A stretch of DNA of 64,000 nucleotides, taken from positions 3,534,001-3,598,000 of the forward strand of contig OZ024764.1 in assembly GCA_964016885.1 (NCBI GenBank), read 5' to 3'. How positions within the stretch are numbered: the first letter of the stretch is position 1; each line of letters starts with the position of its first letter. The stretch comes from Eledone cirrhosa. Taxonomy: Eukaryota. Positions 1,455 to 63,710 of the stretch are shown in pieces. A program made the position numbers and the translations under genes. The notes beneath the pieces were generated by a model that was not told the DNA's origin, ran no database searches, and saw nothing but the letters and a program-made list of their open reading frames with translations.

Positions 1455-4400
1455 ATCTTAACAGAGAACTTCACCCATTTAAAAATGATAAAGGTCCCTC
1501 TGGACCTTTATCGTTCCTTAAAAGAACAATTTAGACGGGACGTGAGCCCCCCCTGTTTAAAACCGTTAAATCGCGTCCTCTTGAAAGATTTCCCCATAAC
1601 CGCCCCTCTCCCTGACACAACTCCAAATACCCCAACCCCACCACACACGGGTACCCCCACACCACCACAAAACATCCCTCCACCCAACACACCTGACGCC
1701 ATGGAAATTACACAACCCGGAGAGGTAAGTGCTTTTCTTTCTTCACTTTCAACACCAAAATAGATCAATTGAGAGTTGGCTGTTTGAACGCGCGTGGCCT
1801 GGGCTCAGCTTGGAAGCAAGCAAAGCTTCTAAGTGACCTTAGATCACAAAGTATAGATGTGATGGTTGTTTGCGAGAGTCGGATCAGCAGCGTGAGACAG
1901 CTGGCGCCCGCCTTCGATGACTTTGAGATGCACGCATCTCTCTTTCAACCCGGAGGAGGGGGGGGAGTTGCCGTACTGCTGGATAAACGTCTGGCTCTCG
2001 ACGTACAGATTGTTCACTCGGACCCGGGGGGGTCGATTACTGGTGCTGGACGTCGGGGGCGGTGAAGGCGGGGCTTTCAGACTGGTCGGTCTTTATGCTC
2101 TCTTCGGGGCGGAAAGAGCCGACTTCTTCCAGCGTCTGGAGACTTTTCTAGGAACGTCGCGTTCCCTGCTTTTAGTGGGGGACTGGAATGGAATCCTAGA
2201 TGCGCGTTGGGACTATGCAGGGGCATGTCCCGATAGAGGGGGGTGTAGCAACCTCAAGGGGTTACTCGATCGATTCGACCTGGTCGATAGATTTCGACTA
2301 GATTGTCCAACTGTGCCAACCTGGACCTGGGCAAACCACAGTGGACAATCTAGATCGTACCTAGATAGGTTTTTGGTTAGGAGTAAGGATAGGGACGTAT
2401 TTAGTTGTCCAGAATTGATCATGGTTGGCTATTCAGATCACAAATTAGTGACCTGCGTGGTCAACCTTGATAGAACACATAGACAGGGTCCCGGTTACTG
2501 GAAGATGAACTTGTCCTTGCCGGCAAAGAAAGATTACAGGAACCGGATTAGTAGCTTAGTTAAGATGCGGTTGACGGGAGCGATCGTCAACAGCAGGTGG
2601 TGGGTATCTCTAAAGAGAGAGATTAGAGTAAGTTCGATAGGTTACAGTAAGGAACTAGCGGCGAATAGAAATAGGAAGGAAAGGGAGTTAACAGATAAAC
2701 TAGAAGAGGCAATTAGGAGCGGAGACGTAGCCAGAGTGTTAGCGGCGAGAACGGCGTTGAGCCAGTTCTTTGACGCGAAGCACGAAGGCTGCGTTGTCCG
2801 AAGTAAAATACGTGCTTTAGGAAACGAGGGGACCAAAGCTGTTAGCTGGGCCCGCGTGACAGAAGCCAAGAGTGGGATTAAATCCACCATTCGGTCTTTG
2901 CGAGACCAGGATGGACGGGTGATCCTTGAACCTGAGCGGATGTGCGAGGCCTTTCAAAGGCACTTTGCTCGACTGTTCGGAGGGGGCGGGGGGCCGGACG
3001 GGGATGTGGACTTCGGTCCATACCTCGACGGTCTACCGCGTCTTTCGAGCGGCGAAGCGGAGTGCTGCGAAAGACCAATCACAGCCACTGAAATCGGGAA
3101 AGCGCTCGGCCAATGCAGCAGACGCAAATCTCCGGGTCTCGATGGTCTACCATACGAACTTTATTTAGCTATGCCGGTCTTGTTCTCCGAACTCCTCGAG
3201 GCTGTCTATTGCAACTGGCAACAGAACGGGAGAATTCCCTGTTCTGTGACCAAGGGCGTAGTCACGCTAGTGAGGAAGGACGAGAGCAAGGGGGACGACT
3301 TAAGTAACTTCAGGCCCATAACTCTGCTGAATGCAGAGTTACAGATTTTGGCCAAGGTGTTGGCGAAGAGGTTGGCGTTGTGGTGGGTGGTTTGGTGGGA
3401 GACGCGCAGACATGCACTATCCCGTCCAGGTCCATTCACGACAACCTCCACCTCATGCGATACATCATAGAGAGGGTTGGCAACGAACCCGGCTTTGGTG
3501 GGGCCCTGATCAACTTGGATCAATCTAAGGCGTTCGATAGGGTCGACCATGGTTACCTGGATGCGGTGCTAGCGGCGGCGGGCTTCGGACCCGTTTTCAG
3601 GGGCTGGATTTCTGCCATGCACAGTGGCAACATCTACTCTAGGGTTAAAGTAAACGGCTACCTCTCGGAGCCGTTTCAAATCACCCGGTCCATCAGGCAG
3701 GGGTGCCCCCTCTCCTCCCTTCTGTACGTATTGACTCTCGAGCCACTGCTGCGGAAGTTGGAGTTGCTGCGGGGCATACCCCTGGAACCGGGTTGCACAA
3801 AGCGGTCTCGGCCTATGCCGACGACGTAACAGTAATGGTGGCGGACGCCTCGGAAATCGGGGCGATCGCCACCCTACTGGAGGAATACGAAAGGCTGACG
3901 GGGGCTAAGCTGAACCAGGACAAGTCAGTCGGTTTGCAACTCGGAACGTGGAGGGGCAAACCGATGCCATTAGACGGTGTCGTCGGGCGGTGGACGGAGG
4001 GCCCGGTGAAGCTGCTCAGACCGGACCTCCAGGTGGAGAAGAATTGGGGCGAGGTGACGAGCAGGGTGTTTGCGCTGACCCAGAAGTGGGCCAAGTGCAA
4101 ACTATCACTGAAAGGTCGGGCGGAGGTGACGAACGCTTACATAGCGTCCGTCATCTACTACCGCCTGACCGTCGTGCCTTGCCCCAAGGAAAAGCTCACC
4201 ATCATGGAACGCATGCTCTTCCAGTTCCTCTGGAAGAAGCGGCCTCCCATGGTGAGGAGATCCATCTGCTGCCAGCACCCTTCGAAAGGAGGGCTGGGTA
4301 TGCCGTGGCTGTTGATGCGTAGGCACGCATTGAGGCTACGGCATCTACAGGTATTCCTCCACGGTCAGCCGGTGTGGGCCCCGTTTGTGAGGCGAGCCTT

Positions 4401-5463
4401 CCCACAGCTCGTCTCGCTCACCGAACTGCAATCCTGGGTGAAGCAAAGACCGAGAAAACTGGGCAACTGGCACACCGAGTGTGCCCAGGCGCTCACGGCT
4501 ATCTAGCAAGCGGACCCGACTATCAGTGGAGAATCCACCTCGACATTCTATAGAGGGTTGGTGGCTAGCAAGGGCGACGACACCCTTGTAGAGTCGCTAG
4601 GCATGGAGGAGGACGAACTGGCCAGCCTGTTCGGTAGAACTTTCGGCCCGGGACCCATGGACAACTTCCAGAGGTCCCTAGCCTGGCAGTGTTACCGGGG
4701 GGCTATGCCCGTTCGAGAAAAGCTCTACAGACACGGGCGCCCGGGCAGGGATCCCGCGAAAAAGATCTGTCCCAGATGCGTGCGCGACGAGGAAACCGTT
4801 GCGCATGCACTGGTACACTGCCCGGGCGTTGCCGATCTGTGGGGCTACGTCGAACGACTGCTGTCGCGTGTGGCGCCGATTCGATTAACCGCCGAGTCTG
4901 TGGTGAACATCAAGCCGCCTCCTCCCTTCAGAAATGAAGCAGAGGCGGTCTTTCTGTGCGTAATAGCCATGATGAAAGAGGTTGTGTGATGGACGCGCCT
5001 GAAAGGTCTGAGGTCGGGTGACTTTCTCTCCGGCCATCACCTGGTTTACTTCTTCCGATACCACTTCGGAAGAAGGATCAGGATGGAGAGAGAAGTGCTT
5101 GGCCCCAGACAGTTTTATGAAAGGTGGGTGAAAGAAGCGAGAATGGCCCGTGTAAATGGGCCTTCTCTCTACATTGTTCTGTAGGTGAAGAAGTGAAGAC
5201 GAAAGGGGGAGCGCCTCCTCTCTGGGCTTCCCCCGCGAAAAGAGTTGCACACTTTTCGGGGGTATGTGCAATCCCCAACACGCCCCCTCCCTTTTGAGGA
5301 CTTTTTATTGTTATATTATTATTGTTATTCCTTTTTCTTTACTCGATTTATGTAAACTCCCCCACTGTGTAAATGTCCCCTTCTTTTGTGCCCTCGTGGC
5401 AAATAAATAGAAATTTATCTATATTTATCTATCTATCTATCTATCTATCTAACTATATATCTA
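1455..5463 (+). mobile_element. Tx1/L1-clade LINE copy A (5'-truncated in ORF1, frameshifted ORF2)
   Basis: APE endonuclease (GCLNARGL, VGDWNG, SYLDRF, SDHK), RT (KSPGLDG, DQSKAFDRV, IRQGCPLS, AYADDV), C-terminal CPRC..HALVHC zinc finger, 3'UTR ending GTGGCAAATAAA plus (TATC)n. Confidence 0.95.
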
Positions 5464-8400
5464 CTGGTGGTTACTAACCGGTTTCCTCAATTTAGACGAG
5501 GACAACCTCATTTCAATAGGGAAGGCATCCGGCGACGCGTTCAGTGGAACGAGCATCAAAGTTCTGACCCAAATAAGGCCAGAACGCATCGCCCAAATCC
5601 CTGAGCGCGTCATGCTGGATGACTGTACCCACCTCAACATTATTGTGGAGGGTAGGCGTCCCTCCTGTTACCTCTGTGGCAATAGAGGTCACCTGAGGGC
5701 TGCCTGTCCCCAGCTCACACAGAAAAAAACACTGCTACCAACACCACCCCAACTACAACAACAAAAACAACCACAACAACAACAACAACAACAACAAAAA
5801 CCAACAACCCTACCACCACCACAACAACAACAACAACAAACACGTGAAAAAATAACACAGAATACTGTCCCACCCAATCCCTCCCCACCCAAAACAAATA
5901 CAAAAACACACACACCGCAAACACTACCAGAAAACATAACCCTCCCACCCAACAAGGAAGACGAACCCCTTTCGTCGCAAGACGAAAAAGATCCCTTCCA
6001 ACAAGTAAAAAGAAAGAAGAGGAGACGCACCACAGACACACGTTAACTTTAACCCCCCCCCCCCCAAGAGAACACAAACTACACACAAACCACCCCTCCC
6101 TGTCACACAACACTAACTGCTACACAAAAAAAGACCTTACAATATACATACATGAACACAGACAACAAAGAATTACGGAAAACAATTTCAGCAAACCCTT
6201 CGGTCCAATCTTTATAACTGCTGTGGGACTACCTCATTTAAAAATGATAAAAGTCCCAATGAACTTGTACAAAACACTGAAAATAAATTTCACGGAGGAC
6301 GTGCCCCCCCCCCCCCCCCCCTGCGCCAAACCAATCAACCGCGTCCTCCTAAAAAATTTCACCCCCCACCCCACCCAGACACCCACTCAACCACAAACAC
6401 CCCAACCCCACAACACACCGATGCCCCTTCACTTCCACAAACCACCACCCCACCCAACAACCCATCCCCAACCAGCATGGAAATTGAGCGGCCCGTTTCC
6501 CGGGACGCAGAGAGGTAAGTGCCTTTTCTCCTTACCACCAACATGGCTGTGCTAAGAGTAGGGTGTCTAAATGCGCGTGGCCTGGGCTCGTCTTAGAAGC
6601 AAGCAATGCTTCTAAATGACCTCAGGTCACGATCTATAAATGTGATGGTTATCTGCGAGGCCCGGATCAGCAGCATGCGACAGCTAGCCCCCACCTTTGA
6701 CGACTTTGAGATGCACGCATCTCTCTGTCAGCCCGGAGGTGGGGGTGGGGTTGTCGTTCTGCTGCAAAAACATATGGGCCTTGCAACACAGATAGTTCAC
6801 TTGGACCCAGGGGGTCGACTGGTGGTGCTGGACCTTGGCAGTGGTGAAGGTGGAGCCTTTAGGCTGGTAGCCGCATATGCTCCTTTTGGGACAGAGGGGC
6901 CCGACTTTTTCCAGCGTCTGGAGTCTTTTCTAGGGACGTCCCGTTCCCTGCTTTTAGTGGGGGATTGGAATGGTATCCTGGATGCACGTTGGGACTATGC
7001 AGGGGCATGTCCCGATAGAGAGGGGTGCAACAGCCTCATGGGGTTACTCGGCCGATTTGACCTGGCCGATAGATTTCGACTAGATTTTCCGACGGTGCCA
7101 ACCTGGTCTTGGTCAAATCGCAGCGGATCATCTAGGTCGTACCTAGATAGATTTTTAGTTAGAAATAAGGACAGGGACTTTTTAAGTTGTCCAGAAATGC
7201 TCATGGTTGGCTATTCAGACCACAAGTTGGTGACCTGCATGGTCAACCTTGATAGAACGCATAGACAGGGCCACGGTTACTGGAAGCTCAACTTGTCCTT
7301 GCCGGCAAGTAGAGCCTACAGGGATCGGATTAGTACGTTAGTTAAGGAACGATTGACTGGAGCGATCGTCAACAGCAGGTGGTGGGTATCTCTAAAGAGA
7401 GAGATTAGAGTAGTCTCGATAGAATTTAGTAAGGTTCTAGCTGCGGATAGGAATAGGAAGGAAAGGGAGCTAATAGATAGAGTAGAAGAGGCAATTAGAA
7501 GCGGCGACGTGGCCAGAGTGCTAGCGTCGAGAACGGCTTTGAGCCAGTTTTTCGACGCGAAGCACGAAGGCTGCGTTGTCCGAAGTAAAATACGTGCTCT
7601 AGGGAACGAGGGGACCAAAGCTGTTAGCTGGGCCCGCGTGACAGAGGCCAACAGTGGAACTAAATCCACTATCCGGTCTTTGCGAGACCTGGATGGACGG
7701 GCGATTCTTGAGCCTAAGCAGATGTGTGAGGCCTTTCAAAGGCACTTTGCCCGACTGTTCGGGAGGGGCGGGGAGCCGGTTGGGAACGTGGACTTCGGTC
7801 CATACCTCGACGGCCTGCCGCGTCTCTCGGACAGGGAGGCGAAGTCCTGCGAGGAGCCGATTTCGGCCGCTGAGATAGAGGACGTGCTGGGCCAATGCGG
7901 CAAACGCAAATCCCCGGGTCTCGATGGTCTTCCTTACGAATTATATCTAGCTATGCCGGACTTGTTCCCCGAGCTCCTCGAGGCGGTCTACTGCAACTGG
8001 CAACAGAACGGGAGAATTCCCTGTACTGTGACCAAGGGCGTAGTCACGCTAGTGAGGAAGGACGAGAACAAGGGGGACGAAATAAGTAACTTCAGGCCCA
8101 TAACTCTGCTAAATACAGAGTTACAGATTTTGGCCAAGGTGCTAGCAAAGAGGTTGGTGCTTGTCGTGGGCAACCTGGTGGGAGATGCACAGACATGCGC
8201 TATCCCGTCCAGGTCCATCCATGACAACCTCCACCTCATGCGATACATCATAGAGAGGGTTGGGAACGAACCCGGCTTTGGTGGGGCTCTGATCAACTTG
8301 GATCAATCTAAGGCGTTCGATAGGGTCGACCATGGTTACCTGGATGCATCCCTTTGGAACCGGGATTGCGGAAAGCGGTGTCGGCCTACGCCGATGACGT

Positions 8401-10060
8401 GACAGTAATGGTGTCGACGGCCTCCGAAATCGAGGCGGTCGGCACCTTACTGGAGGAGTACGAAAGATTCACAGGGGCTAAGCTGAACCGGGACAAGTCG
8501 ATCGGTTTGCAACTCGGCACGTGGAGGGGCAGACCGATGCCCTCCGATGGCGTCGTCGGACGCTGGACGGAGGGCCCGGTGAAGTTGCTCGGGGTCTGGT
8601 TCGGACCGGACCTCCAGGTGGAGAAAAACTGGGCGGAGGTTACGAACAGGGTGTTTGCACTGACCCAGAAGTGGGCCAGTTGCAAACTATCCCTGAAAGA
8701 TCGGGCGGAGGTGGCGAACATCTATATAGCGTCCGTCATCTACTACCGCCTGACCGTAGTGCCCTGCCCAAGGGAAACCCTCACCAAGATGGAGCGCACG
8801 CTCTTTCAATTCCTTTGGAAGAGGCGGGCTCCTATGGTGAGGAGATCCATCTGCTGTCAACACCCTTCGAAAGGAGGGCTGGGGATGCCGTGGCTAATGA
8901 TGCGTAAACACGCATTAAGGCTACGGCACCTCTACGTATTCCTCACCGGTCAACCGGTGTGGGCCTCGTTTGTGAGACGAACCTTTCCCAGACTCGTCTC
9001 ACTCACCGAGCTGCAATCCTGGGTCAAGCAAAGACCGAGAAAACTGGGCGCCTGGCACACTGAGTGTGCTCAGGCGCTCACCGCCCTCTGGCAGGCGGAT
9101 CCGGTTATCAGTGGAGACTCCACCGCAACATTCTATAGAGGGCTGGTACGCAGCAGGTGCGACGACACCCTCGGAGAAGCCCTAGACATGGAGGAGGACG
9201 AACTGGCCAGCCTGTTCGGTAGGACATTCAGCCCAGGACCTATGGACAACTTCCAGAAGTCCCTGGCCTGGCAGTGCTACCGAGGGGCTCTACCCGTTTG
9301 AGAAAAGCTCTACAGACACGGGCGCCCGGGTAGGGACCCCGCCAAAAAGATCTGTCCCAGATGCGTGTGCGACGAGGAAACCATTGCACACGCATTGGTA
9401 CACTGCTCGGGCGTAGCCGATCTGTGGGGCTATGTCGAACAACTGCTGTCAAGGGTGGGACCGATCCGGTTGACCACCGAGTCTATTGTAATAATCAAGC
9501 CGCCTCTTCCCTTCAAAGATGAAGGAGAGGCGGTGTTTCTGTGCGTAATAGCCATGGTGAAAGAGGTTGTATGGTGGACGCGTCTGAAAGGACTGAGGTC
9601 AGGCACCTTTCTCTCTGGCCAACAACTGGTCCGTTTCTTCCGATATCATTTCGGAAGAAGGATCAGGATGGAGAGAGAGGTGCTCCACCCCAGTCGTTTT
9701 TATGAAAGGTGGGTGAAAGTGGCGAGAATGGCCCGTGTGAATGGGCCTTCACTTTACATAAGCTTGTAGGTGGAAAAGAGGAAGGAACGAGGGAGCACCC
9801 CCTCTCTGTGCTCCTGAGGAAAAGGGTTGCACACTTTTTTCGGGGGTGTGTGCGACCCCCCAAGGTGCCTCCTCTCTATTGAGGATTTTGTTATAAATTT
9901 TATTTTTTGTTATATCTTATTTTATTTTTATATTTTGTTATTGCCTCCTCCTTATTGAGGACGCCTTTTTGTGTAAACTCCCCCCTTTGTACTTGTCCCA
10001 CTTTTGATGCCCCAGTGGCAAATAAAAGAAACATATCTATCTAACTATATATCTATCTAT
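5464..10060 (+). mobile_element. Tx1/L1-clade LINE copy B (partial ORF1 with CCHC knuckle; ORF2 with internal RT deletion)
   Basis: CYLCGNRGHLRAAC zinc knuckle; APE and RT; the RT segment containing QGCPLS is missing near 8348; flanked by the 22-bp duplication TATCTATCTAACTATATATCTA (5442-5463 and 10034-10055). Confidence 0.95.
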
Positions 10061-14443: not shown

Positions 14444-15130
14444 ATTGAAACCGTCTTGCACGCAATTGTACACTGGCCGGGCATAACCGACCTGTGGAAC
14501 TACGCGGAACAGCTGCTGTCACGTATGGGACAAATTCAGTTGACTGCTGTGTTCATAGTAAGGATCAAACCGCCAACTTCTTTCAAAAACGAAAGAGAGG
14601 CGGTTTTCCTCTGTACAGTGGCTATGGTGAAAAAGGTTATATGGTGGACGAGATTGAGAGGACTGAGGACAGATGCCTTTCTCTCCGGACAACAATTGAT
14701 TCCCTTCTTTAAGTATCACTTTAGAAGGAGAATCAGAGTGGAGAGAGAGGCAATGCACCCCAGTAAATTTACTGAAAGGTGGGTGAATGTGGCAAAAATG
14801 GCCCGAGTGATTGGGCCTTCTCTGTATATAAACCTGTAGGTTGAAGAAGAGAGCAAAAAGAAGAAAGGAACACTTGCACAACACGCTCCTGAAGTTGAGG
14901 GTTGTTCTATCTACGGGGTATTAAACAACCCATTTGTGGCACCTCCCCCCTATTGGGGATTTCAATTGTTAAATTTGTTTATTTCAATATTTTTACACGA
15001 CTGTATGTAAAATCCCCGGCCTATGTCCTTGAATTGTCCCCTTTTCTTGTGCACCCTTGTGGCAAATAAAGAAATATATCTATTTATCTATATCTCTATA
15101 TCTATCTGTCTATAGCTATCTATCTATCTA
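14444..15130 (+). mobile_element. Tx1 copy H (most diverged, 3' fragment)
   Basis: ETVLHAIVHW..PSLYINL*, diverged 3'UTR, GTGGCAAATAAAGAAA plus TATC tail. Confidence 0.9.
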
Positions 15131-24361: not shown

Positions 24362-25013
24362 ACTCTATATATACTATTGTATTGTCACAGTAAAGGCTTT
24401 ACCTCACATAATATCTCACATAACATTTACATTACTCTATATATACTATTGTATTGTCACAGTAAAGGCTTTACCTCACATAATATCTCACATAACATTT
24501 ACATTACTCTATATATACTATTGTATTGTCACAGTAAAGGCTTTACCTCACATAATATCTCACATAACATTTACATTACTCTATATATACTATTGTATTG
24601 TCACAGTAAAGGCTTTACCTCACATAATATCTCACATAACATTTACATTACTCTATATATACTATTGTATTGTCACAGTAAAGGCTTCACCTCACATAAT
24701 ATCTCACATAGCATTTACATTACTCTATATATACTATTGTATTTTCACAGTAAAGGCTTTACCTCACATAATATCTCACATAACATTTACATTACTCTAT
24801 ATATACTATTGTATTTTCACAGTAAAGGCTTTACCTCACATAATATCTCACATAACATTTACATTACTCTATATATACTATTATATTTTCACAGTAAAGG
24901 CTTTACCTCACATAATATCTCACATAACATTTACATTACTCTATATATACTATTATATTTTCACAGTAAAGGCTTAACCTCACATAATATCTCACATAAC
25001 ATTTACATTACTC

Positions 25014-33778: not shown

Positions 33779-33867
33779 AACTGTAGAGTTACAGGCAGAA
33801 ATAGGAATAAAGCCAAATCTAAGCCCAGCAGCTATTATCATAAGTGGTAAAATAAGAGTTTACTTAC

Positions 33868-36800
33868 CAATAGTTGTCATAACTGTAATGGCATAGAGCA
33901 GGGAGCTGGCGTAGGACCACTTTAAATCTCGTTCATTCGAGTCATTAGAATAATACCTATCAAACTTCGTTGCATTGTGGACCTTAAGTTCAAACTTTCT
34001 TAATTCTTGATCTAGCAACGTTTGAAATTTTGTTACTGATTGTTTACCAAGTTTGGACTCATTTGAGAGTTGGTTGATCCTGATAACAGCCTTCACGCGC
34101 AGGTCGGTGATGTTCACAGCTTTTTCGTTCTCATAAGGTCCTTCAATAGCTTGGAACACAAAACCCCCCATTATTGAGTAGGCTACCACCAGAGAACAGA
34201 GCCCGATATGTGAGAAGAGGAAAGCAATGAATTTTTTTATGCAGCTGAGGATTTTGCGACGTCTCTCACGCATTCGGAATGCCTTGCTCTCTCGCCGCAG
34301 CTGGGCACGCTTTGCTTGGAACTCAGGGTCGTCCTCTTTCGGCTGCTTTGAGCCATCAATTTTTTCATACATACCTCCACCGCCAACGGCCTGCTTTGTA
34401 TCGTCATCAACGAGTGCCGTCTCCCGGATGTCAAGGGGCTTGAAGAGGTTTGCCTCATTCTCCATGGTGAGAGGAGTGTCGAGGGGTTGGCGCACTAGTT
34501 GATTCAATAAATTCAATTCTCTCAATTCGTTGACGGAGCCAATGTCTTCGTTGTCAAGTTCGAAGCCAATCCTGAGTCGTCTCTGGCGTGCCAGTCTGTT
34601 CTTCAAGAGGACCACAGCTGACAGAGACAGTCCTCCACCAACACCAATGCCACCTACAAATTTGTCTATCTTTCGAACTTCTCCAGTGCCACCATCCTCT
34701 TCATAACTGGCCTCCACATCCAGCTTGATGCCCGCCAAGTGTTCTCCAAGTAATACAGTCTGTGTGGAAGCATGTGGTGGCCCATTATAGGTGTCGTCAT
34801 TCTTCGAGGTGACATTATCTGATTTCTTTACTTTCCGACTCGCTTTCTTCTCTTTCTTTGATTTCTTCTTCTCAAGTTCCTTCTTTTTCTCCACAGCTTT
34901 GTCCTTGCTCTTTCCTTTCAAAGACCATCTTTTTGTCTTGCTTTTCTCCTTCGTCTTGCTCTCCTCAGCCACGTCTACCTTGGTGTCCAGCAGACATTCT
35001 TTCTCTCCGGCCTTCTCCAGTGCTGATTCAGATGATGTCATCTTGTCACCCTTTCTCAGCATCCCGGAACCTGCTCCCACTCTTCCTCCTGAGGACGAGC
35101 GACCACACCGTCTCAATGCTGCCTTCTCATCGTAACCCCCTTTTCTTCCAGCCTCTCCGAACATCCCAATATTCTCGGCACTAATCCGCGTGATCTTCCG
35201 CATGGAATCTGTCTTCACAAGGACCTCAGGAATACGTGGGATTATCGGACGTTTCGAGGCGTCCCTTTCTGAAAACGAACGCTGGACTTTCACATTCTTC
35301 TTTTTCTTCACCTTCTCCGTATTCACGTCTGTCGTTTCTTTGGCTGCCTCTCTCTGGAGAGCTTCCGTGGCTGTCACACAAGGTTTTGTGTCAATTTCCG
35401 GGAAAAACATTCTATTAGTGGCCGCTTTCCGAGATCCTATCTTCATTTCGTGGATTTTATCAAGCCATGTCGTACCGCTACTGAGAGCACTTCCACCCAC
35501 ACCGGTTGTGTGTGGACGTTGCTGCTGCTGTTGGTGGTGTTTGTGGGGCTGGGAGTCAATAGCGGCTGTGTTAGGAGAGGGACTTCTTGAAGAAGAAGAG
35601 GACAGAGCGGCCGGACTTGACCCACCGTCCGTGCTCACCGAGGAGGAACAGCTCTTTTGACTGCTGCCGGTGGTGGCGCCGCTGACTGGAGACAGAGCTG
35701 GACTCTTTGAGGGAGACTTCGACGAGGCAGACCTCGAGTGTGAGTTTAGACTGTGAGGTGAGACGGACTCATCGTCCGTGGAGAACCTCTGTGGTATTGT
35801 GATTGTAAGTCGAGTGGGGTCAACAGGTGGGGCATGGTGGTGGTGGTGGTGGCCAGGAGTGGTGGTGGCGGTGGCGGTGTGGTGGTGATGGTGGTGGTGG
35901 CTACTGGTCTTCTTTGCACTGCCTGACCTCGACAGGTGATCCTCTTTCGGCAGGTCGGAAGAGGGGGTCGTCCCGCCACCGCCAGTTGGAATGGGTGTCA
36001 CATGACTTGGTTTGGTGTTGGAGGAGGGTGGAATGAAAGGTGGTGTGTCGCGGGGCTTGCGGCGCGCAGGTGACCCCGATCTCGAATCTCCGTAATAATC
36101 CTCTGGTTTAGACACCTTAATTGTTGGAGACTGCACGGATTTCTCCGGAGATTGTGATCCGTATCGGTCCGAACGTCCGGAAGACGGAGTCCTCTCATAG
36201 CGGGAGGATGAGAAAGATGTCGGACTTCTCTCGATGACCTGAGTCACATGACCCGGCTTTCTTTCCCTGCCTCGTGCAGCCCTCCTCGTTGTCGTTGTAT
36301 CGCCCTCTAAGTCGCTCATGTCCTGGTCCCCCGCTGGGCCATCGCCATCATCATCATCTTCGTCATCACCAGCACGGAGGCCAGTAGATTTCCTATCCCT
36401 GAGAGAATGGTGCGGTGGGGAGAAAGTCCTCTTGTATTTCTGTTGTTGTTGTTGCCGTGACAACGAGGAAGGGAATGTAGGCTGTTGGTGGGGGGAGGGT
36501 ATGTCGTCGTCGATATCATCATCATAGAAGACCGAGGAGCTGTCTGGTGATATCGGACTGACAGCGAGCTCTTCACTGTTGTTGCTTGCCATTCTCCTAG
36601 AGCGTTTGTGTTCCACACTTTCACCTCTCCTTGTACCCCTAGGAGAGGAAGTGGAGGAAGGTTTCTCTCTCGACTCCGAGTACCTCGGATGTCGTGTCTC
36701 TTTCTCCGTCTCTTCCTTCGTGCTATGACGAGACCGGCCTCTCGGTGACACACTCCTCGTGTCTTTTGCGACACCCAGAAAGGAATATTGGGATTTTCCT

Positions 36801-37698
36801 TTTCCATGTGTGCCACCAAATTCCTCCGTTGTCGCTTCACAGTCCTTTACAGCCTGCAATAAGTTCGAAGTCGACCTCTTCAGTTGATTGTATTTATCGA
36901 CTGCGAGCTTGTCCTGCTCGGTGCCTCCATCTTGTCGCGCGGAAAAAGGCGAGGCGGTCTTACTCAGTTCCATAAACAAGGTGTGTGGTTCGTTCATGTC
37001 AGAATCATCACCACAACCATCATAATCATCGTCCTCACCATCATCTGAGTCGTGGTATACTCTTTGTTGCTTCTCGGCACCCCTCCGTGCAGTTTTCCCC
37101 GAGTCTTGCTCCCGTGTCTCTCTTTGAGTCTTTTCCATTGACTTTGTTCTTCGATCACGAAGCTTCTTCGTCTTTGACGTCTCATTGCTAGCCGAAAAGG
37201 ACCGCACCACCTTTGGTGTTGTCCGAGAACGTGACTCGCTTCTCTCCCTCTTTGGAGACTTTGACCGGCTCTGCTGTCGCTTCCTCTCTCTCGATCCCGA
37301 GGTCCCGCCCTTCACTTTAGTGCTCGGTGACCTTGAACCCGCAGACGGCGAGCGCTTTGTGTGCCGCGTAACTGAGGGAGACGAGGGTGCTGGCGTCGCC
37401 TTCTTCTCTGTGTGTTTGATGTCCCTACCAACACGTATATACCTCACGGGCTCTCCTCCCTTCTCTTTCGGGAGCACCCCTTTACTGCCACCACTCCCTT
37501 TCGTGGCATCCTTGTTCCGTGAAGGGGTCGCGGTGGACTTCACAACTTTGTGTAATTTGTCTGGCGTACGTCGGCGGACCTCCTTAGCAACGGCGGACCT
37601 GGTCGTCGCCGGGGAGGAAGGTGTGGGGGTAAAGTCGTCGTCCATGTGAAGGTCAGGTGTGGAAACAGAGAGAGCACGTACTGAACCATCGTCATCAT

Positions 37699-37743
<45 letters not shown>

Positions 37744-38386
37744 AATGGCGATCCTTACTTCCCTTAGTGCCAGAGTGGGACCGCAGTTCATTCACCCTTC
37801 TCTGCTTCCGAGTCGATGAGGAGCTGGGCAGCGCATGGGCTGATGACATCCACTTTACTCTCTTCTCCATGCGAGCTTCCTTCACAGTCATCCTGCGTAG
37901 TCGGTCGCGAGGCCTGCTGCTCACTGGGCCGACACCACTACTGCCTTCGTCGTCGCTAACGACAGCCCGCGGGTCAAGTGCTGCCTGTGTGCCCCATTCT
38001 GGAGCAACATGGCCCCCGCTGCCACTACCAAATTCCAGCTCCCCTCCCCCACCAGCATCGTCACCGCCATTCACGACACTCTTGGTGGGGCTGCGTGTGC
38101 CGCTTGAAGAGCGGCTCCTCTTAAAGAAACTCAGTTTTTTCTGTTTTGTAGATCCATTCTTCCGCTCCAGGGGTGAACTTGGATCTGTGACTGCAGGGGC
38201 TGTGGTGGCAGATGGGGAGCAAGGGGGCGGTGACGGGGATTGAGGTTCCATCCCACTTCCAGTCCTCTCACCTTTCATTGTGCCACCACCACTGCTGCCC
38301 GCTCTTTTCAACTGCTTCCCCGAGTTGTCTCCCTTGGTGGAAGGTATCTCTTTCTCTTTGTCTCTGTGTCTCTCTTTAGAACTCAT
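33868..38386 (-). CDS. First coding exon of a two-pore-domain (K2P/TWiK-family) potassium channel with a very long low-complexity N-terminus
   Basis: 1508-codon ORF; C-terminal part has M1 (FLFSHIGLCSLVVAYSIMGGFVFQAIE), a cap region and pore helix WSYASSLLYAITVMTTIG, then donor G|GTAAGT at 33867 interrupting the GYG filter; acceptor TTTTGTGTCTTAG|G at 38449; in-frame TAA upstream of the ATG. Downstream exons were not found in the window. Confidence 0.88.
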
Positions 38387-38472
38387 TCTCGCGAATCCTT
38401 ACGCATTTGTCCTCCATCGGCTAAAGTCCTTCGCCAACACACCATTTCCTAAGACACAAAAGACACACATCT

Positions 38473-51218: not shown

Positions 51219-51321
51219 GAGAGTGTGGGGGCATGTTGACTATATGCTTCAGCTTCGGCTTGTACCCGTGGGGGGGGGGGGGGGGTCGGGTCTTCTGTAT
51301 TACTGCGTAATGCCATATATA

Positions 51322-51881
51322 TGAGGGTAATCCCAAAAGTAAGGTCCCCAAAGCGATGGGGGACGCAGAGAAACTGTTCGTACGGCTGTTGGCAACACTG
51401 TTGTGATTGGTGCTTCCTTCACTCCCATACGAGCGGTTTGCTGGGATGCTCAATCTTGGCTTGGCAGCCCGTGAGAATGGAGCTCCCGTTGAACGCTACC
51501 GCAGCCAAGTGCAAAGTTTGCGTAGTTATTCAGTTTTTGAACGCAACAGGCGTTGAACCGATTGAAGTTCATCGCCAATTGACGGAAGTGTATGGACAGT
51601 CGTGCATGGATGTCAAAAACGTTCGCAAGTGGTGTAGAGAGTTTACAGCCGGTCGTACTGAAATTCACGACGAACAAAGGAGCGGGAGACCGTCAATTTC
51701 CGACGAGACAGTCACAAAGGTTGAGGAAAACATGCGTAAAGATCGGCGGATCACTCTGGATGCTCTCTGCATTTTGGTTCCTGAGGTTTCCTGAAGCACC
51801 ATCCACAGGATTTTAACGGAAAAGTTGCAATATCTCTGCATCCCCATTGCTTTGGAGACCTTATTTTTGGGATTACCTTCG
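51322..51881 (+). mobile_element. Internally deleted mariner transposon
   Basis: About 50-bp TIRs (YGARGGTAATCCCAAAARTAAGGTCYCCAAAGC), TA flanks; transposase N-terminal HTH from ATG 51477 (VIQFL..EVHRQLTEVYG..VRKWCREF..DEQRSGRP). Confidence 0.9.
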
Positions 51882-55495: not shown

Positions 55496-57456
55496 ATAAG
55501 GACAAACTAAACTCCTTAACCCTTTAACATTTACATTACTCTATATATACTATTGTATTGTCACAGTAAAGGCTTTACCTCACATAATACCTCACATAAC
55601 ATTTACATTACTCTATATATACTATTGTATTGTCACAGTAAAGGCTTTACCTCACATAATATCTCACATAACATTTACATTACTCTATATATACTATTGT
55701 ATTGTCACAGTAAAGGCTTTACCTCACATAATATCTCACATAACATTTACATTACTCTATATATACTATTGTATTGTCACAGTAAAGGCTTTACCTCACA
55801 TAATATCTCACATAACATTTACATTACTCTATATATACTATTGTATTGTCACAGTAAAGGCTTTACCTCACATAACATTTACATTACTCTATATATACTA
55901 TTGTATTGTCACAGTAAAGGCTTTACCTCACATAATATCTCACATAACATTTACATTACTCTATATATACTATTGTATTTTCACAGTAAAGGCTTTACCT
56001 CACATAATATCTCACATAACATTTACATTACTCTATATATACTATTGTATTGTCACAGTAAAGGCTTTACCTCACATAATATCTCACATAACATTTACAT
56101 TACTCTATATATACTATTGTATTTTCACAGTAAAGGCTTTACCTCACATAATATCTCACATAACATTTACATTACTCTATATATACTATTGTATTGTCAC
56201 AGTAAAGGCTTTACCTCACATAATATCTCACATAACATTTACATTACTCTATATATACTATTGTATTTTCACAGTAAAGGCTTTACCTCACATAATACCT
56301 CACATAACATTTACATTACTCTATATATACTATTGTATTTTCACAGTAAAGGCTTTACCTCACATAATATCTCACATAACATTTACATTACTCTATATAT
56401 ACTATTGTATTGTCACAGTAAAGGCTTTACCTCACATAATATCTCACATAACATTTACATTACTCTATATATACTATTGTATTTTCACAGTAAAGGCTTT
56501 ACCTCACATAATATCTCACATAACATTTACATTACTCTATATATACTATTGTATTTTCACAGTAAAGACTTTACCTCACATAATATCTCACATAACATTT
56601 ACATTACTCTATATATACTATTGTATTTTCACAGTAAAGGCTTTACCTCACATAATATCTCACATAACATTTACATTACTCTATATATACTATTGTATTT
56701 TCACAGTAAAGGCTTTACCTCACATAATATCTCACATAACATTTACATTACTCTATACATAATATTGTATTGTCACAGTAAAGGCTTTACCTCACATAAT
56801 ATCTCACATAACATTTACATTACTCTATATATACTATTGTATTTTCACAGTAAAGGCTTTACCTCACATAATATCTCACATAACATTTACATTACTCTAT
56901 ATATACTATTGTATTTTCACAGTAAAGGCTTTACCTCACATAATATCTCACATAACATTTACATTACTCTATATATACTATTGTATTTTCACAGTAAAGG
57001 CTTTACCTCACATAATATCTCACATAACATTTACATTACTCTATATATACTATTGTATTTTCACAGTAAAGGCTTTACCTCACATAATACATCACATAAC
57101 ATTTACATTACTCTATATATACTATTATATTTTCACAGTAAAGGTTTTACCTCACATAATACCTCACATACCATTTATATTACTCTATATATACTATTGT
57201 ATTTTCACAGTAAAGGCTTTACCTCACATAATATCTCACATAACATCTCGTATACGAGAGACGTGTGTTGACCTGTATGTACAAGCTCGGTTACCGAGTT
57301 GGATTTACTTACTCAAAAGTGAGTTTTGATTTATTGTTTTATACTGTAATATACGTTAACCCCTTGCCTGGGTCGTCAGACTTTGAGTTTATTTATTTTC
57401 GCCCCTTTTTGGGGCGAATTTTACATTTAAAAATTGATTACGGCAAACTGATAGAA

Positions 57457-59225
57457 ATGGACGGAATTTTCACATCTCATCCTAACGAGAAAGCCACGCC
57501 CCCTAAGAAAGGTGATACAGAGAAGCTAGAAGCACAAGGCTCTAAGTCTTCCCTCCTCACTTCTGCAAAAGAAACATGGGACACGGAATTAAAAGAAAAA
57601 TTTGTAAAAATGGGTGAAAACCCAGAAAGTCACATAAACGCAGACAAAAACAACAATGACAATAACAGCACGACCAACAACAGCAATAGTCACAACACCA
57701 ACCAAGAAAAAAAGGAAAAAAATAACGATAACACCAAACAAAGCGAACCCACTACTGGTGCCTCCTTTGCACAGGCGGTCCGAAAAACACAGACCTGCAA
57801 GCAACTGGACATTACAACTCTGAGAGAAAAGATGAAGGAAGCAAAACAGTATGTAACTTTCAAAGGAGGAGGAGACTTCACAATCACCTCCCCACAAGAA
57901 ATCAAAAGAGACACGACGCTAAGAACGATATCTTTCAGAACAATTTCCAACATAACAAGGAAACCAGCTCAATTATCCCAAAAAGAGATAGAGCTGGTCC
58001 TAAAAAATGTGTGGAGTGATATATCGTTCATACAATGGGAATATAACGTTCACTCTATGGGAATATAACGGTCCTAATGAAGGATCAATTGACGGCCAGG
58101 AAATACTCTGTGGTGCCAATTGTTTCCAAGCTACATACATTTTTCCCCACATATTTAGGGAAAAGAACGCAGAAAATAAGGGTCTCCGGAATCCGGCCAA
58201 ATGCATGCATTTCCTGGGTACTATCGGGATTTTTAGAAGACGAGGACGGAATCCTCTCAGTAGGAGAAGTCACCACAGACGTTTTCGGCGGTTTGAGCGT
58301 GGAGGTTCTGGTCCAAATGAGACCAGAACGAATAGCTAGAATACCACAGAGGGTGTCCCTCGATGGAGAAACATTTATATACATTTCAGCCGAGGGTAGG
58401 AGGCCCATATGTTACTACTGTTCAAGCAGGGGTCATCTAAGGGCTGCTTGTCCTTAATTGACAAAAAAAAAGGCTCTTTTGCCTACACCCCACACACCAC
58501 CACCGCCACCACCACCACCTCCACCACCACCACCACCACAACAACAACAAAAACAACACGGAAAAATAACACAAGACACGGCCCCACCCAAAACAACTCC
58601 AAAAACACACACAAACACAACAAAACCCCAAAATACACCACTACCCGACAGCACGGACGAAGATCCAGCTGAAACGGCACCTAGTGACGAAGAGGGGGGA
58701 CCCTTCCAACCTGTAAAAAGGAAAAAAAGAAAGCACCACTCGAACATAAACGAAACAAACACACAACCACCAACAAAAACAAAACAAACAGAACAAACAA
58801 AATCCGCCCCACCCCAAAACATAACACATACAACAAAACGTAAGCACACACAAGAACAACAAACAAACACAACACAAATAAAACAGTATACATACATTAA
58901 CACAAATAACAAAGAACTAGTAAAAACAATACACAAAGACCCTTCGGTGGAAACTGAAGGGCAATTCTTTGCAAGCGCGGCCAACAAACCGCATTTAAAA
59001 ATGATAAGACTCCCAATGGACACCTATGCAAAACTAAGAGAGAACTTTCCTGAGGACGTGGGGAAAACATGTACTCGACCCTATAACCGCGTCCTCTTGA
59101 AACGTTTCCCCACCCACACCTCACCAAACACCCCCACTCCACCACAGAACAACACCCCACCAAACAACCCCTCCAATACGCCCATGGATATTGTGCAACC
59201 TGCTCCTCAGGAGCCGAACAGGTAG
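57457..59225 (+). pseudogene. Tx1 ORF1 (gag-like, single CCHC knuckle, Pro/Thr/Gln-rich tail)
   Basis: MDGIFTS..SFAQAV..CYYCSSRGHLRAAC..PHLKMIRLP..EPNR*; frameshift near 58050, stop at 58457. Confidence 0.8.
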
Positions 59226-59246
59226 GTCCTTCCTCTTTTAACCAAC

Positions 59247-62200
59247 ATGGCTGATATAAGAGTTGGGTGTCTGAATGTACGCGGCCTGGGACTGTCTTGG
59301 AAACAAGGCAAACTTTTAAACGATCTCAGGTCGCATAGAATGGATGTAATGGCTATTTGCGAGTCCAGGATCAGCAGCGAGCACCAACTGGCGCCCCTCT
59401 TCGACGACTTTGAGATCTTCGCATCTCTCTGTCAACCGGGGGGTGGGGGTGGAGTTGTCGTTCTGCTGTGAAAACACCTGGGCCTCGCCATACAGAAGGT
59501 GCACCTGGACCCGGAGGGTCGACTGGTGGTTTTAGACGTCGGCAGTAGTGAAAGTGGAGCCCTTAGACTAATTTCTGTGTACGCCCCTTTTTGGGCAGCG
59601 CGGTCGGAATACTTCCAACGTCTGGAAACTTTTCTGGGAACGTCCCGCTCCTTGCTTTTAGTGGGGGACTGGAATGGTATCCTGGATGCACGTTGGGACT
59701 ATGTAGGGGCATGTGCCAATAGAGGGGGGTGTAAAAGCCTCAAAAGGTTAATCGGCCGATTTGACCTGGCCGATAGATATCGACTAGATTTTCCGACTGT
59801 ACCACTATGGACGTGGACCAATCGCAGTGGAACATCTAGGTCGTACCTAGATAGGGTCCTAGTTAGAGAGAAGGATAGGGACACATTTAGCTGTCCCAAA
59901 ATGTTCATGGTTGACTATTCAGATCACAAGTTAGTGACCTGCATAGCCAACCTTGATAGAACCCATAGACAGGGACCCGGTTACTGGAAGCTGAACTTGT
60001 CCTTACCGACAAGCAAAGCTTACAGTAAACGGATTAGCACGTTAGTTAAGCAGAGTTTGACAGGGGCAATTGTCAACAACAGGTGGTGGAGCTCTCTTAA
60101 GAGAGCAATTAGAATAGAATCGATAGGTTTTAGTCAGGAATTAGCAAGGGATAGGAACAAGACGGAAAGGGAATTAGTAGATAGAGTAGAAGAGGCGATT
60201 AGGAGTGGCAATGTAGCCGGCGTGCTAGCATCAAGAATGGCCTTAGACCAGTTCTTTGAGGTGAAGCATGAAGGCTGCGTTGTCAGGAGTAAAATACGTG
60301 CTCTGGGTAATGAGGGAGCCAAAGCTGTGAGCTGGGCCCGAGTGACAGAGGCAAAAAGTGGGAACAAGTCCACGATTCGGTCTTTGAAGGACCAGGATGG
60401 GCGTGTGATCCTTGAACCTGGGCAGATGTGTGCAGCCTTTCAGCGGCACTTTGCACGACTGTTCGAGAGGGGCGGCATGCCGGGTGAGACTATGGATTTC
60501 AATCCATACCTCGACGGTCTGCCGCGCCTCTCGGACGCGGAGGCGAAGTCCTGCGAAAGGACGATTTCAGCTGCTGAGATAGGGGCGGCGCTGAGCCAAT
60601 GCGGAAAACGCAAATCCTCGGGTCTCGATGGTCTACCATACGAACTATATGTAGCGATGCCGGACTTGTTCTCCGATATCCTCGAAGCGGTCTACTGCAA
60701 CTGGCAGCAGAACGGGAGAATTCCCAGTTCTGTGACCAAGGGCGTAGTTACGCTGGTGAGGAAGGATGAGAACAAGGGGGATGACATAAGTAACTTCAGG
60801 CCCATAACTCTGCTAAATACAGAGTTAAAGATTTTGGCCAAGGTGTTAGCGAAGAGGTTGGCGCTTGTCGTCGGAAACCTGGTGGGAGAAGCGCAGACAT
60901 GCGCAATCCCGTCCAGGTCCATTCACGACAATCTCCACCTTATGCGATACATCATAGAGAGGGTAGGGAATGAACCCGGCTTTGGTGGGGCCCTGATCAA
61001 CTTGGATCAATCTAAAGCTTTCGATAGGGTTGACCATCGTTACCTGGATGCGGTGCTCGCGGCGGCAGGCTTCGGACCCGTTTTCAGGGGTTGGATTGCT
61101 GCGATGCACAGCAGCAACGTCTGCTCAAGGGTCAAGGTGAACGGCCACCTCTCGGAGCCGTTCCAAATCATGCGATCCATCCGACAGGGATGCCCTCTCT
61201 CCTCCCTTCTGTATGTGCTGGCTCTTGAGCCACTACTGCGGAAGTTGGAGCGGTTGTAGGGCATCCCTCTGGAACCGGGATTGCAGAAAGCGGCGTCGGC
61301 CTACGCCGATGACGTGACAGTAATGGTGTCGAAAACCTCGCAAATCGGTGAGATCGGCACCTTACTGGAGGAATATGAAAGGTTTACAGGAGCCAAGCTG
61401 AACCGGGACAAGTCCGTCGGTTTGCAACTCGGAACATGGAGAGGCAAACCGATGCCCTCCAATGACGTCGTCGGACGCTGGACGGAGGGCCCGGTGAAGC
61501 TGCTTGGGGTCTGGTTCGGACCAGACCTCCAGGTGGAGAAAAACTGGAACGAGGTAACGGCCAGGGTGTTTGCACTCACCCAGAAGTGGGCCCAGTGCAA
61601 ACTATCCCTGAAAGGTCGAGCGGAGGTGGCGAACGCTTATATAGCATCCGTCATCTACTACCGCTTGACCGTCGTGCCTTGCCCAGTGAAAAGACTCGCC
61701 AAAATGGAGTGCGCGCTGTTCCAATTTCTTTGGAACAAGCGGACCCCTTTGGTGAGGAGATCCATCTGCTGTCAACACCCTTCGAAAGGAGGGCTGGGGA
61801 TGCCGTGGCTACAGATGCGTAAACACGCATTAAGGCTACGGCACCTCCAGGTATTCCTCACCGGTCAACCGGTGTGGGCCCCGTTTGTGAGGCGAGCCTT
61901 TCCCAGACTCGTCTCGCTCACCGAGCTGCAATCCTGGGTCAAGCAAAGACCGAGAAAAGTGGGCGACTGGCACATTGAATGCGCCCAGGCGCTCACGGCC
62001 CTCTGGAAAGCGGACCCGGCAATCAGTGGAGACTCCACCTCGACATTCTATAGAGGGTTGGTACGCAGCAGGTGCGACGATGCTCTCGGAGAAGCTCTAG
62101 GCATGGAGGAAGATGAACTGGCCAGTCTGTTCGGTAGGACGTTTGGCCCTGGACCGATGGACAACTTCCAAAAGTCCTTGGCTTGGCAGTGCTACCGAGG

Positions 62201-62684
62201 CGCTCTACCCGTTCGAGACTAGCTCCACAGGCATGGGAGCTTGGGTAGGGATCCTTTGAATAAGATCTGTCCGAGATGCGTGCATGACGACGAAACCGTT
62301 GCGCACGCATTCGTACACTGCCCAGGCATTGCTGACCTGTGGGGCTATGTGGAACGACTACTGTCGAGGGTGGCACCAATCCGGTTGACCACCGAGTCCA
62401 TTGTCACGATCAAACCGCCTCCCCCTTTCAAAAACGAAGGAGAGGCGGTTTTTCTCTGTGTGATAGCCATGGCTAAAGAAGTTGTATGGTGGACGAGGCT
62501 GAAAGGGCTGAGGTCAGACACCTTTCTCTCCGGCCAACAACTGGTCCCCCTTTTCAAATACCATTTTAAAAGAAGGATCAGAATGGAGAGAGAGGTGCTC
62601 TACCCCAGCAAGTTTTATGAAAGGTGGGTGAAAGTAGGGAGAATGGCCAGACTGAATGGGTCTTCTCTCTATATCAGCCTGTAG
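59247..62684 (+). pseudogene. Tx1 ORF2 (APE endonuclease, RT, zinc finger) with in-frame stops
   Basis: Single frame with stops at 59471, 61259 and 62222; motifs GCLNVRGL, GDWN, SDHK, SKAFDRV, RQGCPLS, YADD, CPRC..HAFVHC. Confidence 0.95.
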
Positions 62685-63710
62685 ATGAAAGAAGAGGAAA
62701 AAGAGGAGACGAGGGAAGCACCTACTCTTTGTGCTCCTGAGAAGGGTTGCACATTTTTTCCGGGGTGTGTGCGACCCATGTTAATGCCCCCTCCCTATTG
62801 AGGACTTCGTTTGTTGTTGTTATTTCATTGTTATATTTTTGTACTTGTTAATTATATGTAAACTTCCCCCCTTGTATCTGTCCCTACCTTTTGTGCCCTA
62901 GTGGCAAATAAAGAAATCACTCTATATATACTATTGTATTGTCACAGTAAAGGCTTTACCTCACATAATTTCTCACATAACATTTACATTACTCTATATA
63001 TACTATTGTATTTTCACAGTAAAGACTTTACCTCACATAATATCTCACATAACATTTACATTACTCTATATATACTATTGTATTTTCACAGTAAAGGCTT
63101 TACCTCACATAATATCTCACATAACATTTACATTACTCTATATATACTATTGTATTTTCACAATAAAGGCTTTACCTCACATAACATTTACATTACTCTA
63201 TATATACTATTGTATTTTCACAGTAAAGACTTTACCTCACATAATATCTCACATAACATTTACATTACTCTATATATACTATTGTATTTTCACAGTAAAG
63301 GCTTTACCTCACATAATATCTCACATAACATTTACATTACTCTATATATACTATTGTATTTTCACAATAAAGGCTTTACCTCACATAACATTTACATTAC
63401 TCTATATATACTATTGTATTTTCACAGTAAAGTCTTTACCTCACATAATATCTCACATAACATTTACATTACTCTATATATACTATTGTATTGTCACAGT
63501 AAAGGCTTTACCTCACATAATATCTCACATACTATCGAATCTATGAGATTTTGAAAGTATTTATTTCGAGAAACTTAACATCAGTTTGAGCGACCAGTTA
63601 CAGCCAGTTTGAACAGAAAGAGGTAGAGAATTCTGGTCGGTTTTGGCCGGTTTAAACATTAAAGGGTTAACAATGTTCCTATCAAAGAACCAGGATTTTA
63701 CTACACACAA

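Follow-up and report, generated by a model that had tools for sequence, protein, structure and literature searches.

A strong 5' splice site (donor) stands at the end of ORF1 in a group of octopod LINEs, and by comparison of six lineages it is conserved beyond chance and evidently selected. A complementary strand that co-evolves with it, located where the 3'UTR begins, is predicted to cover this donor in the RNA. The element was analysed from a window of 64,000 nucleotides of Eledone cirrhosa DNA (contig OZ024764.1, positions 3,534,001 to 3,598,000, forward strand), in which a first-pass annotation had proposed that ORF2 is one precise spliceosomal intron whose removal would leave an ORF1-only mRNA.

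The element and its lineages

The stretch at 57247-62918 is a two-ORF non-LTR retrotransposon, an L1/Tx1-type LINE of subfamily F, and it sits within an array of a 72-bp satellite. This copy had been called full-length, which is right for its length and wrong for its integrity, with ORF1 broken and three in-frame stops in ORF2. The intact sibling L069 encodes an ORF1 of 578 aa and an ORF2 of 1145 aa. A Pfam search of L069 placed the APE endonuclease, RT and zf-RVT domains of ORF2 above cut-off (PF03372, PF00078 and PF13966), while the CCHC knuckle of ORF1 was weak and scored below it. The features of the copy, and those of two further copies in the window (A and B), are as follows; a slash within a motif marks the proposed exon boundary.

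57247..62918, + strand: LINE copy of subfamily F, full-length but defective, by sequence comparison with L069
57457..59225, + strand: ORF1, broken here (intact siblings: about 578 aa, with a weak CCHC); its stop TAG (59223-59225) lies inside the donor
59206..59244, + strand: duplex arm 1 (predicted by folding): final ORF1 codons, donor and pyrimidine-rich spacer to the ORF2 AUG
59220..59227, + strand: 5' splice-site motif AG/GTAGGT, intron side starting at 59222; the corresponding site in L069 is the top U1 match of 273 GT
59247..62684, + strand: ORF2, 1145 aa if intact, forming the duplex loop; in-frame stops here end at 59471, 61259 and 62222
62665..62685, + strand: acceptor-like ORF2 end proposed in the first-pass annotation, with a pyrimidine run and TAG (62682-62684); encodes the conserved C-terminus
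62695..62741, + strand: duplex arm 2 (predicted by folding): purine-rich 3'UTR start
62720..62726, + strand: anti-donor ACCTACT, predicted by folding as partner of 59221-59227
62907..62912, + strand: AATAAA at the 3' end of the element, from the sequence
1715..1757, + strand: arm 1 of copy A (folding); its donor, at 1725, is in ORF1 phase 0, and the ORF2 AUG is absent
5183..5227, + strand: arm 2 of copy A (folding); duplex energy -50.6 kcal/mol
6500..6544, + strand: arm 1 of copy B (folding), with the donor at 6515
9764..9817, + strand: arm 2 of copy B (folding); duplex energy -49.4 kcal/mol

An ORF1 followed by an ORF2 with APE, RT and a C-terminal zinc finger places the element in the L1/Tx1 group. 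ORF2 matches human L1 ORF2p, its nearest solved structure, with an E value of 1e-52 and R2 with an E value of 3e-23, so that it is L1-type rather than R2-type. The nearest named proteins are those of Argonauta hians, at 59-66% identity, and more remote relatives (P0003, P0005, P0006) share 40-47%. Each lineage examined for insertion sites has its own repeat target. With a strict pattern, the 72-bp satellite was found in 27/38 flanks of subfamily F; (TATC)n is the target of subfamilies A (14/14) and B (13/22), and (ATT)n that of family G (24/25). For the Tx1 clade, target preference has been defined as more than 20% of flanks being of one type (PMC4494074, partial text). One repeat target per lineage fits the Tx1 clade by this definition, a placement made by target preference.

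Lineages F, A, B, G, H and I were compared. Their ORF2 proteins are 68-86% identical between groups, with synonymous distances of up to ~1.1, which between clades is at saturation level. The additional lineages were sampled by protein search of the same genome, and of 120 long loci 108 were parsed and 12 were not; lineage H is represented by a single element. ORF2 carries its own CAAC-AUG, in a frame relative to ORF1 that varies among lineages. Readthrough or frameshifting was considered as a family-wide route to ORF2 and was rejected because the frame offset differs among lineages. The frame shift that had been noticed at the ORF1 end of copy A is real and common to all sampled A members, in which the ORF2 AUG is also missing.

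The ORF1-end donor and the predicted duplex

The donors were found where they had been reported, AG/GTAAGT at 1725 and 6515 and AG/GTAGGT at 59222. G/GTRRGT stands at the ORF1 end in 105/108 parsed elements, a count made with a parser whose donor pattern let variants in. Among 12 representatives with 235-336 GT sites each, the ORF1-end donor is the best U1 match in 11 and the second best in one, the match being the pairing energy to a short U1 motif. Its conservation across subfamilies, on which the earlier proposal depended, was confirmed in all six lineages at synonymous distances up to ~1.1. The donor falls in ORF1 phase 2 in F, B, G and H, phase 0 in A and phase 1 in I; being kept in three phases, it is explained neither by an Arg codon nor by a stop codon. 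Only 65/206 four-fold sites show no variation among the six lineages, and at that rate five neutral bases would all be invariant with p ~0.003. A strong, conserved GT donor, as a U2 intron spanning ORF2 would have, is thus present. Among distant L1/Tx1-like elements from metagenomes (80 loci, 24-37% identity), no donor was found at the identified ORF1 stop of long-ORF2 members. One further locus, L307, has the donor CAG/GTAATT; its 3' end is of G type with part of it deleted, and the locus was excluded from the duplex counts.

The predicted partner of the donor region lies at the other end of ORF2. In prediction, the stretch that starts about 15 nt ahead of the donor and runs up to the ORF2 AUG pairs with a partner made up of the ORF2 stop and the initial ~55 nt of the 3'UTR, giving a duplex of 35-45 bp whose arms are ~3.4 kb apart and whose loop is almost exactly ORF2. 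Its energy lies between -41 and -59 kcal/mol among the 12 representatives and is -35 kcal/mol or lower in all 108 parsed elements. In 11/12 representatives no other 70-nt segment of the element is a better partner than the 3'UTR start, the duplex exceeds dinucleotide shuffles with z scores of -2.6 to -6.4, and it is present in the minimum-energy fold of ~3.8 kb in each of the three lineages folded (F, G and B1). Both arms have competing local folds, and the net gain on forming the duplex is 20-31 kcal/mol.

The two arms appear to have changed together. When arms were permuted among lineages, the cognate pairing ranked first of 720 permutations in 32/32 choices of representatives, while four control windows ranked 50-697; the same test gave rank 1 in 0/38 distant L1/Tx1-like elements and in 9/9 octopod controls. 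At the level of single elements, a 12x12 matrix of arms had the exact cognate as best partner in 6/12 rows and 5/12 columns, and a partner of the same lineage as best in 10/12 rows. At the donor itself the anti-donor follows the sequence, with GTAAGT facing ACTTGC or GCTTGC (G, I), GTAGGT facing ACCTAC (F) and GTGAGT facing ACTCAC (H). In A1 and B the central donor bases are unpaired, so masking there would be partial. The AA of the donor in subfamily B is predicted to be unpaired in the duplex yet is unchanged, indicating that pairing alone does not hold the donor. As a possible footprint of duplex RNA, A>G changes were counted in the arms (37/3,373 A sites, vs 276/37,137 in the pooled rest, p 0.03); their level equals that of other non-coding or low-constraint regions, and the arms show no clear ADAR footprint.

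Proposed donor masking and the possible ORF2 intron

The account that we tentatively prefer, with somewhat less than even confidence, is that U1 is held on the donor during transcription and that the 3'UTR strand then masks the donor, with the result that full-length RNA is exported without having been spliced. On this model, which draws on sequence comparison and predicted folding, U1 would bind the donor on the nascent RNA while ORF2 is being transcribed and would suppress early cleavage. When arm 2 emerges, its anti-donor stretch would displace U1, which would block splicing and at the same time remove the nuclear-retention signal of an unused donor. The complete, unspliced RNA would then be exported, translated and copied, and RNAs ending before the 3'UTR would leave the donor exposed and be retained or spliced. 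The AG/GT at the ORF2 stop would mostly be a helix end beside the ORF2 AUG, rather than a fixed acceptor, and a minor spliced ORF1-only fraction would be permitted, though unneeded.

Two features of the arrangement bear on this model. A helix that promotes removal of an intron would be expected inside that intron, but here the donor pairs with what would be the downstream exon, which is the geometry of a repressor; and a perfect donor that is conserved and then masked suggests a positive role prior to masking. A pure telescripting role is argued against by the scarcity of poly(A) hexamers in ORF2 (canonical ones are absent in F, B and H), which leaves a weaker need for telescripting across it. 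Such hexamers do occur within ~500 nt upstream of the donor in 10/12 representatives, as expected in an A-rich ORF1. More tentatively still, the whole may work as a completion checkpoint of an octopod LINE, in which the ORF1-stop donor and U1 would flag the RNA as unfinished or route it to an ORF1-only splice form, and a U1-mimicking 3'UTR strand would zip over the donor on completion, the element itself setting the split between ORF1-only and full-length RNA.

A masked donor is equally compatible with a regulated intron. ORF2 might be a true alternative intron with its acceptor at or just past the ORF2 stop, yielding an ORF1-only mRNA, and the duplex would then compete with splicing and set the spliced:unspliced ratio; we regard this as rather unlikely. 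It would account for the strong conserved donor, and it has a precedent in Copia elements, in which donor strength outweighs acceptor strength (PMC5580714, partial text). Donor masking and this intron differ mainly in the amount of spliced RNA and in the acceptor used.

In the window, the TAG of the ORF2 stop does lie within YTGTAG/R at 8/8 ORF2 ends (5184, 9769, 10380, 10752, 13432, 14196, 14839 and 62684), as had been reported; these ends belong to related subfamilies and are not independent of one another. Across lineages the stop is TAG in F, A, B, H and I, followed in family I by T or A, but it is TAA in G, the largest sister family. ORF2 ends in TAA in 26/108 parsed elements, 25 of these G-type, and with the AG missing at the stop of family G the TAG acceptor is not conserved across the family. 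By a heuristic score of our own, untrained on this genome, the stop AG ranks 1/267 in A and 7/271 in F, which speaks for the intron; the ranks in B, H, G and I are 13-51 (232-271 AGs per element). In G the next AG ranks 46-51 of ~265, and a join to it would add 64-105 codons to ORF1. Acceptors deeper in the 3'UTR were also tried and rejected, being strong in G only and having zero matching genomic copies.

The reading frame after the join is similarly divided. Joining donor to stop AG ends ORF1 within four codons, in its own phase, in 5/9 representatives (F, A, B1, I1 and I2, which cover three phases), as the intron would predict, but it extends ORF1 by 32-105 codons in 4/9: by 32 in H, by 78 in B2, and also in G1 and G2. 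The TGA near the 3'UTR start lies within arm 2, so pairing may fix it. In copy A, the join in its own frame meets a stop three codons on. For the window copy, the earlier prediction that the join restores an ending in R and a stop (AAC AG/A TGA) is correct in that ending, but the A following TAG is private to this copy; subfamily F reads TAG/G in 35/35 copies with a parsed end (40 fetched).

The acceptor-like appearance of the ORF2 end has other sources as well. The pyrimidine run before the stop encodes PSLYISL-like ends, as had been cautioned, and this C-terminal peptide is conserved as protein in relatives that use other codons (TTLSMHL, PTLNMRF). In the predicted duplex, the AG/GT at the ORF2 stop is the end of the helix, facing the spacer ahead of the ORF2 AUG, and in family G an AAG/GTGG 7 nt past the TAA is likewise at the helix end facing that spacer; pairing would therefore account for most of the resemblance to an acceptor. 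Both the proposed acceptor and the exon after it are thus in or beside the helix, which weighs against the intron. A precise stop-to-stop intron as a family-wide design is unsupported, given the lack of an AG at the G stop and the extension of ORF1 in 4/9 representatives.

Splicing of this kind could leave genomic copies lacking exactly GT..AG, and none was found against 1,804 junctions, 9,350 3' ends and 3,553 G ORF1 ends. An ORF1 motif stood near the ORF2 start at the 1,804 places and near either of two 3'UTR motifs at none, and the 9,350 3' ends carry the ORF2 end (F, A or B made up 71 of the first 100 listed, judged by eye). Both search motifs are intact in 22-29/38 F and 31-35/36 A/B test elements, and spliced inserts are rarer than roughly 1 in 1,500 3' ends. 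The searches covered F, A, B and G, and at most part of H, I and the minor subfamilies. Among F copies, 0/298 had a non-G base after the exon, a test that is blind to an ORF2-spanning join since the F 3'UTR begins with G; a non-A at +3 was seen in one F copy only, an unspliced point variant. In family G, no GT-AG-spliced copy was found among the 3,553 ORF1 ends, which were counted by an exact pattern.

ORF1-only copies numbered 0 in F/A/B and two single copies in G, neither made by splicing. In these two (of 3,553 G ORF1 ends) the donor is retained and the breakpoint lies 4-6 nt inside ORF2; in one, a 4-nt microhomology makes the join at the base of the helix, ~30 nt ahead of the ORF2 stop. 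Two copies are anecdotal evidence, and the search window was itself biased towards breakpoints close to the AUG. Of 24 internal deletions tabulated from fetched loci, with some elements entered twice and one neighbour-copy artefact, none begins at the donor. The absence of spliced copies counts against the suggestion that an ORF1+3'UTR RNA is mobilised in trans. LINEs copy their own RNA in cis, and this preference means that zero spliced genomic copies limits trans-mobilisation without excluding splicing at the RNA level.

Other readings and known systems

The duplex may instead act in translation or RNP assembly, which we consider improbable, a shade more so than the ORF2 intron. It would hold the ORF2 stop against the ORF1 stop, the spacer and the ORF2 AUG, limit or gate reinitiation and bring the 3' end to the ORF2 start for cis-preference, with the donor motif being separate or minor. 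The helix does extend to the ORF2 AUG, which in F, B, H and I is paired with the stop region; its loop is almost exactly ORF2, and ORF2 has its own CAAC-AUG in varying frames. Long-range pairings in plant RNA viruses control readthrough or frameshifting. The ORF2 of subfamily A, which lacks the AUG, is under purifying selection (dN 0.089 and dS 0.434 against subfamily B), also in keeping with such a role. What a role in translation leaves unexplained is the near-perfect U1 match, kept while the partner strand varies, and the in-step changes of the partner at donor positions.

It is very improbable that the motifs are merely inherited by descent, or kept for a role at the DNA level, and that their complementarity is compositional. 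The lineages are all related, the arms are biased in composition (pyrimidines in arm 1, purines in arm 2), cross-lineage arm pairs average -38.6 kcal/mol, and the human L1 5'UTR donor is an example of one kept within a RUNX3 site (PMC5860796, partial text). This explanation is nevertheless disfavoured by the cognate rank of 1/720, the shuffle z-scores, the compensatory changes of the anti-donor and the saturation-level synonymous distance between clades. A short intron (39-68 nt) that begins at the donor, ends at the AG of ORF2 codon 5 and fuses ORF1 with ORF2 is scarcely credible: in F, B, G and H the phase-2 donor would be joined in frame to a conserved AGA codon 5 and a pyrimidine run does follow the donor, but the frame is wrong in A and I, the intron would be very short in F and B (39-42 nt), the ORF2 AUG context is retained, and such an RNA keeps ORF2 and should copy in cis, yet 0/298 F copies bear the non-G base expected of it.

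Several known systems resemble parts of this arrangement. HAL1 elements consist of ORF1 and the 3' end without ORF2, the type of product that the first-pass annotation predicted, and no such family was found here. In retroviruses, the major splice donor is sequestered by structure, and U1 suppresses a nearby poly(A) site; in plant viruses, pairing on a kilobase scale connects a gene junction to the 3'UTR. These systems involve a local hairpin or a role in translation only, vs a U1-mimicking strand in the 3'UTR predicted over a LINE donor here.

The closest relatives are the Tx1-clade LINEs (Tx1, Keno, Kibi, Koshi and the L1-Tx1 elements of Octopus vulgaris), which have the same two ORFs, an APE-RT-zinc-finger ORF2 and their own repeat targets. 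In Octopus vulgaris, 13 recently active L1-Tx1 families have been reported (PMC13282606, partial text). No donor or long-range duplex in Tx1-clade LINEs is described in the portions of PMC4494074 and PMC13282606 available, and the string "splic" occurs 0 times in the latter.

In function, the nearest likeness is to the shGAG strategy of Ty1/Copia elements. In the Arabidopsis element EVD, a conserved U1 site likewise stands close to where the structural gene ends, and U1 possibly has a dual role, in splicing and in guarding full-length RNA from premature termination (PMC5580714, partial text). EVD itself is of the LTR type; it has a single gag-pol ORF and a short intron, with splicing coupled to early termination (same source). 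Unlike EVD, the Eledone element is non-LTR, has separate ORFs and no conserved acceptor, and carries its anti-donor strand 3.4 kb off in the 3'UTR. Being non-LTR and having two ORFs, it does not follow the shGAG strategy proper, and the likeness is functional only. Retention in the nucleus of RNA with unused donors, on which the masking model draws, has been described (PMC4380460 and PMC9074902, both partial text).

Among LINEs, human L1 and its SpIREs also have a long-conserved, rarely used donor, and it has been suggested that RNA structure hides this donor from U1, with no strand identified in the text available (PMC5860796). The human donor lies in the 5'UTR and is kept for RUNX3, and spliced copies, which retain ORF2, make up ~2% of full-length L1s (PMC5860796, partial text). 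Unlike human L1, the Eledone element has its donor at the ORF1 stop, a candidate masking strand and 0 spliced copies found. In the open-access literature searched, no LINE was found with a conserved ORF1-end donor, a junction-to-3'UTR duplex or a U1-mimicking masking strand.

To our knowledge, little has been established outside mammalian L1 on how two-ORF LINEs achieve a large excess of ORF1p, avoid splicing and pick out full-length RNA. A conserved donor and a masking strand that co-evolves with it would offer a concrete and directly testable mechanism for these questions, and a strong donor on thousands of copies may also influence host transcripts. The component parts have precedents in LTR elements and viruses, and no report of their combination in a LINE was found in the open-access literature. 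If true, masking would bring to non-LTR elements two strategies known from elsewhere, the dual use of U1 seen in copia elements and the long-range RNA switching seen in viruses.

Start of ORF2 in subfamily A

In subfamily A of the two-ORF LINE family, the AUG of ORF2 was found to be replaced by ATA, which overlaps the ORF1 stop, in all sampled members:

Window 1725-1790; genomic loci L102-L111, L128 and L138-L141: ATA where ORF2 would have its AUG

Comparison with subfamily B gave a dN of 0.089 and a dS of 0.434 for ORF2 of subfamily A, indicating purifying selection, and among the 14 copies parsed, ORF2 is open in one. That this ORF2 lacks an AUG yet is under purifying selection and still open in one copy suggests, from sequence, that its initiation would be AUG-independent.

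Splice-like motifs and G-family rearrangements

Besides the donor (the U1-type 5' splice-site motif at the ORF1 end), further splice-like motifs were observed at sampled LINE loci, together with rearrangements near the predicted duplex, in which the ORF1 end, donor and spacer before the ORF2 AUG (arm 1) pair with the start of the 3'UTR (arm 2):

L318 and L308-L310: second perfect donor motif, AAG|GTAAGT, within ORF2 of families G2 and I, ~310 nt past the first
L175 and L318: in the family G 3'UTR, ~160-180 nt after the ORF2 stop, a long T tract and CAG forming a strong acceptor-like site, not kept in other lineages
L317 (G000:C1:53172500-53179500) and L307: H and J junctions between ORF1 and ORF2, whose spacer holds the donor plus an acceptor-like YAG, 37 and ~49 nt apart
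L322 1500-1830 and L323 1500-1600: G-family copies without ORF2
L143 1727-1830: back-junction or nested insertion near the predicted helix, G family

In the two ORF2-less copies, the deletion begins 4-6 nt inside ORF2 and the donor is retained; they may represent jumps of the reverse transcriptase over the base of the predicted duplex. The 3'UTR of L143 is interrupted ~20 nt past the stop, inside arm 2, and is followed by sequence from near the ORF2 start.

Insertion pattern and other features of the window

Lineage F inserts at a single position of a 72-bp satellite, with identical 5' flanks in 33 of 36 cases (loci L031-L070). Its insertion appears to delete ~7 nt of target, without duplication and without a poly(A) tail.

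57240-57247 and 62918: borders of the F copy
1500-15100: (TATC)n with at least 8 copies of related subfamilies, stacked head-to-tail
22848-25018 and 25588-29009: tandem duplication of a ~2.7 kb segment, carrying near-identical open frames as well as satellite arrays
33860-38398 (-): open frame of 1512 codons
51240-51794 (+): open frame

The 1512-codon frame is probably one large host exon, and its end presumably resembles a potassium-channel pore helix; the frame at 51240-51794 apparently resembles the N-terminus of a Tc1/mariner transposase.
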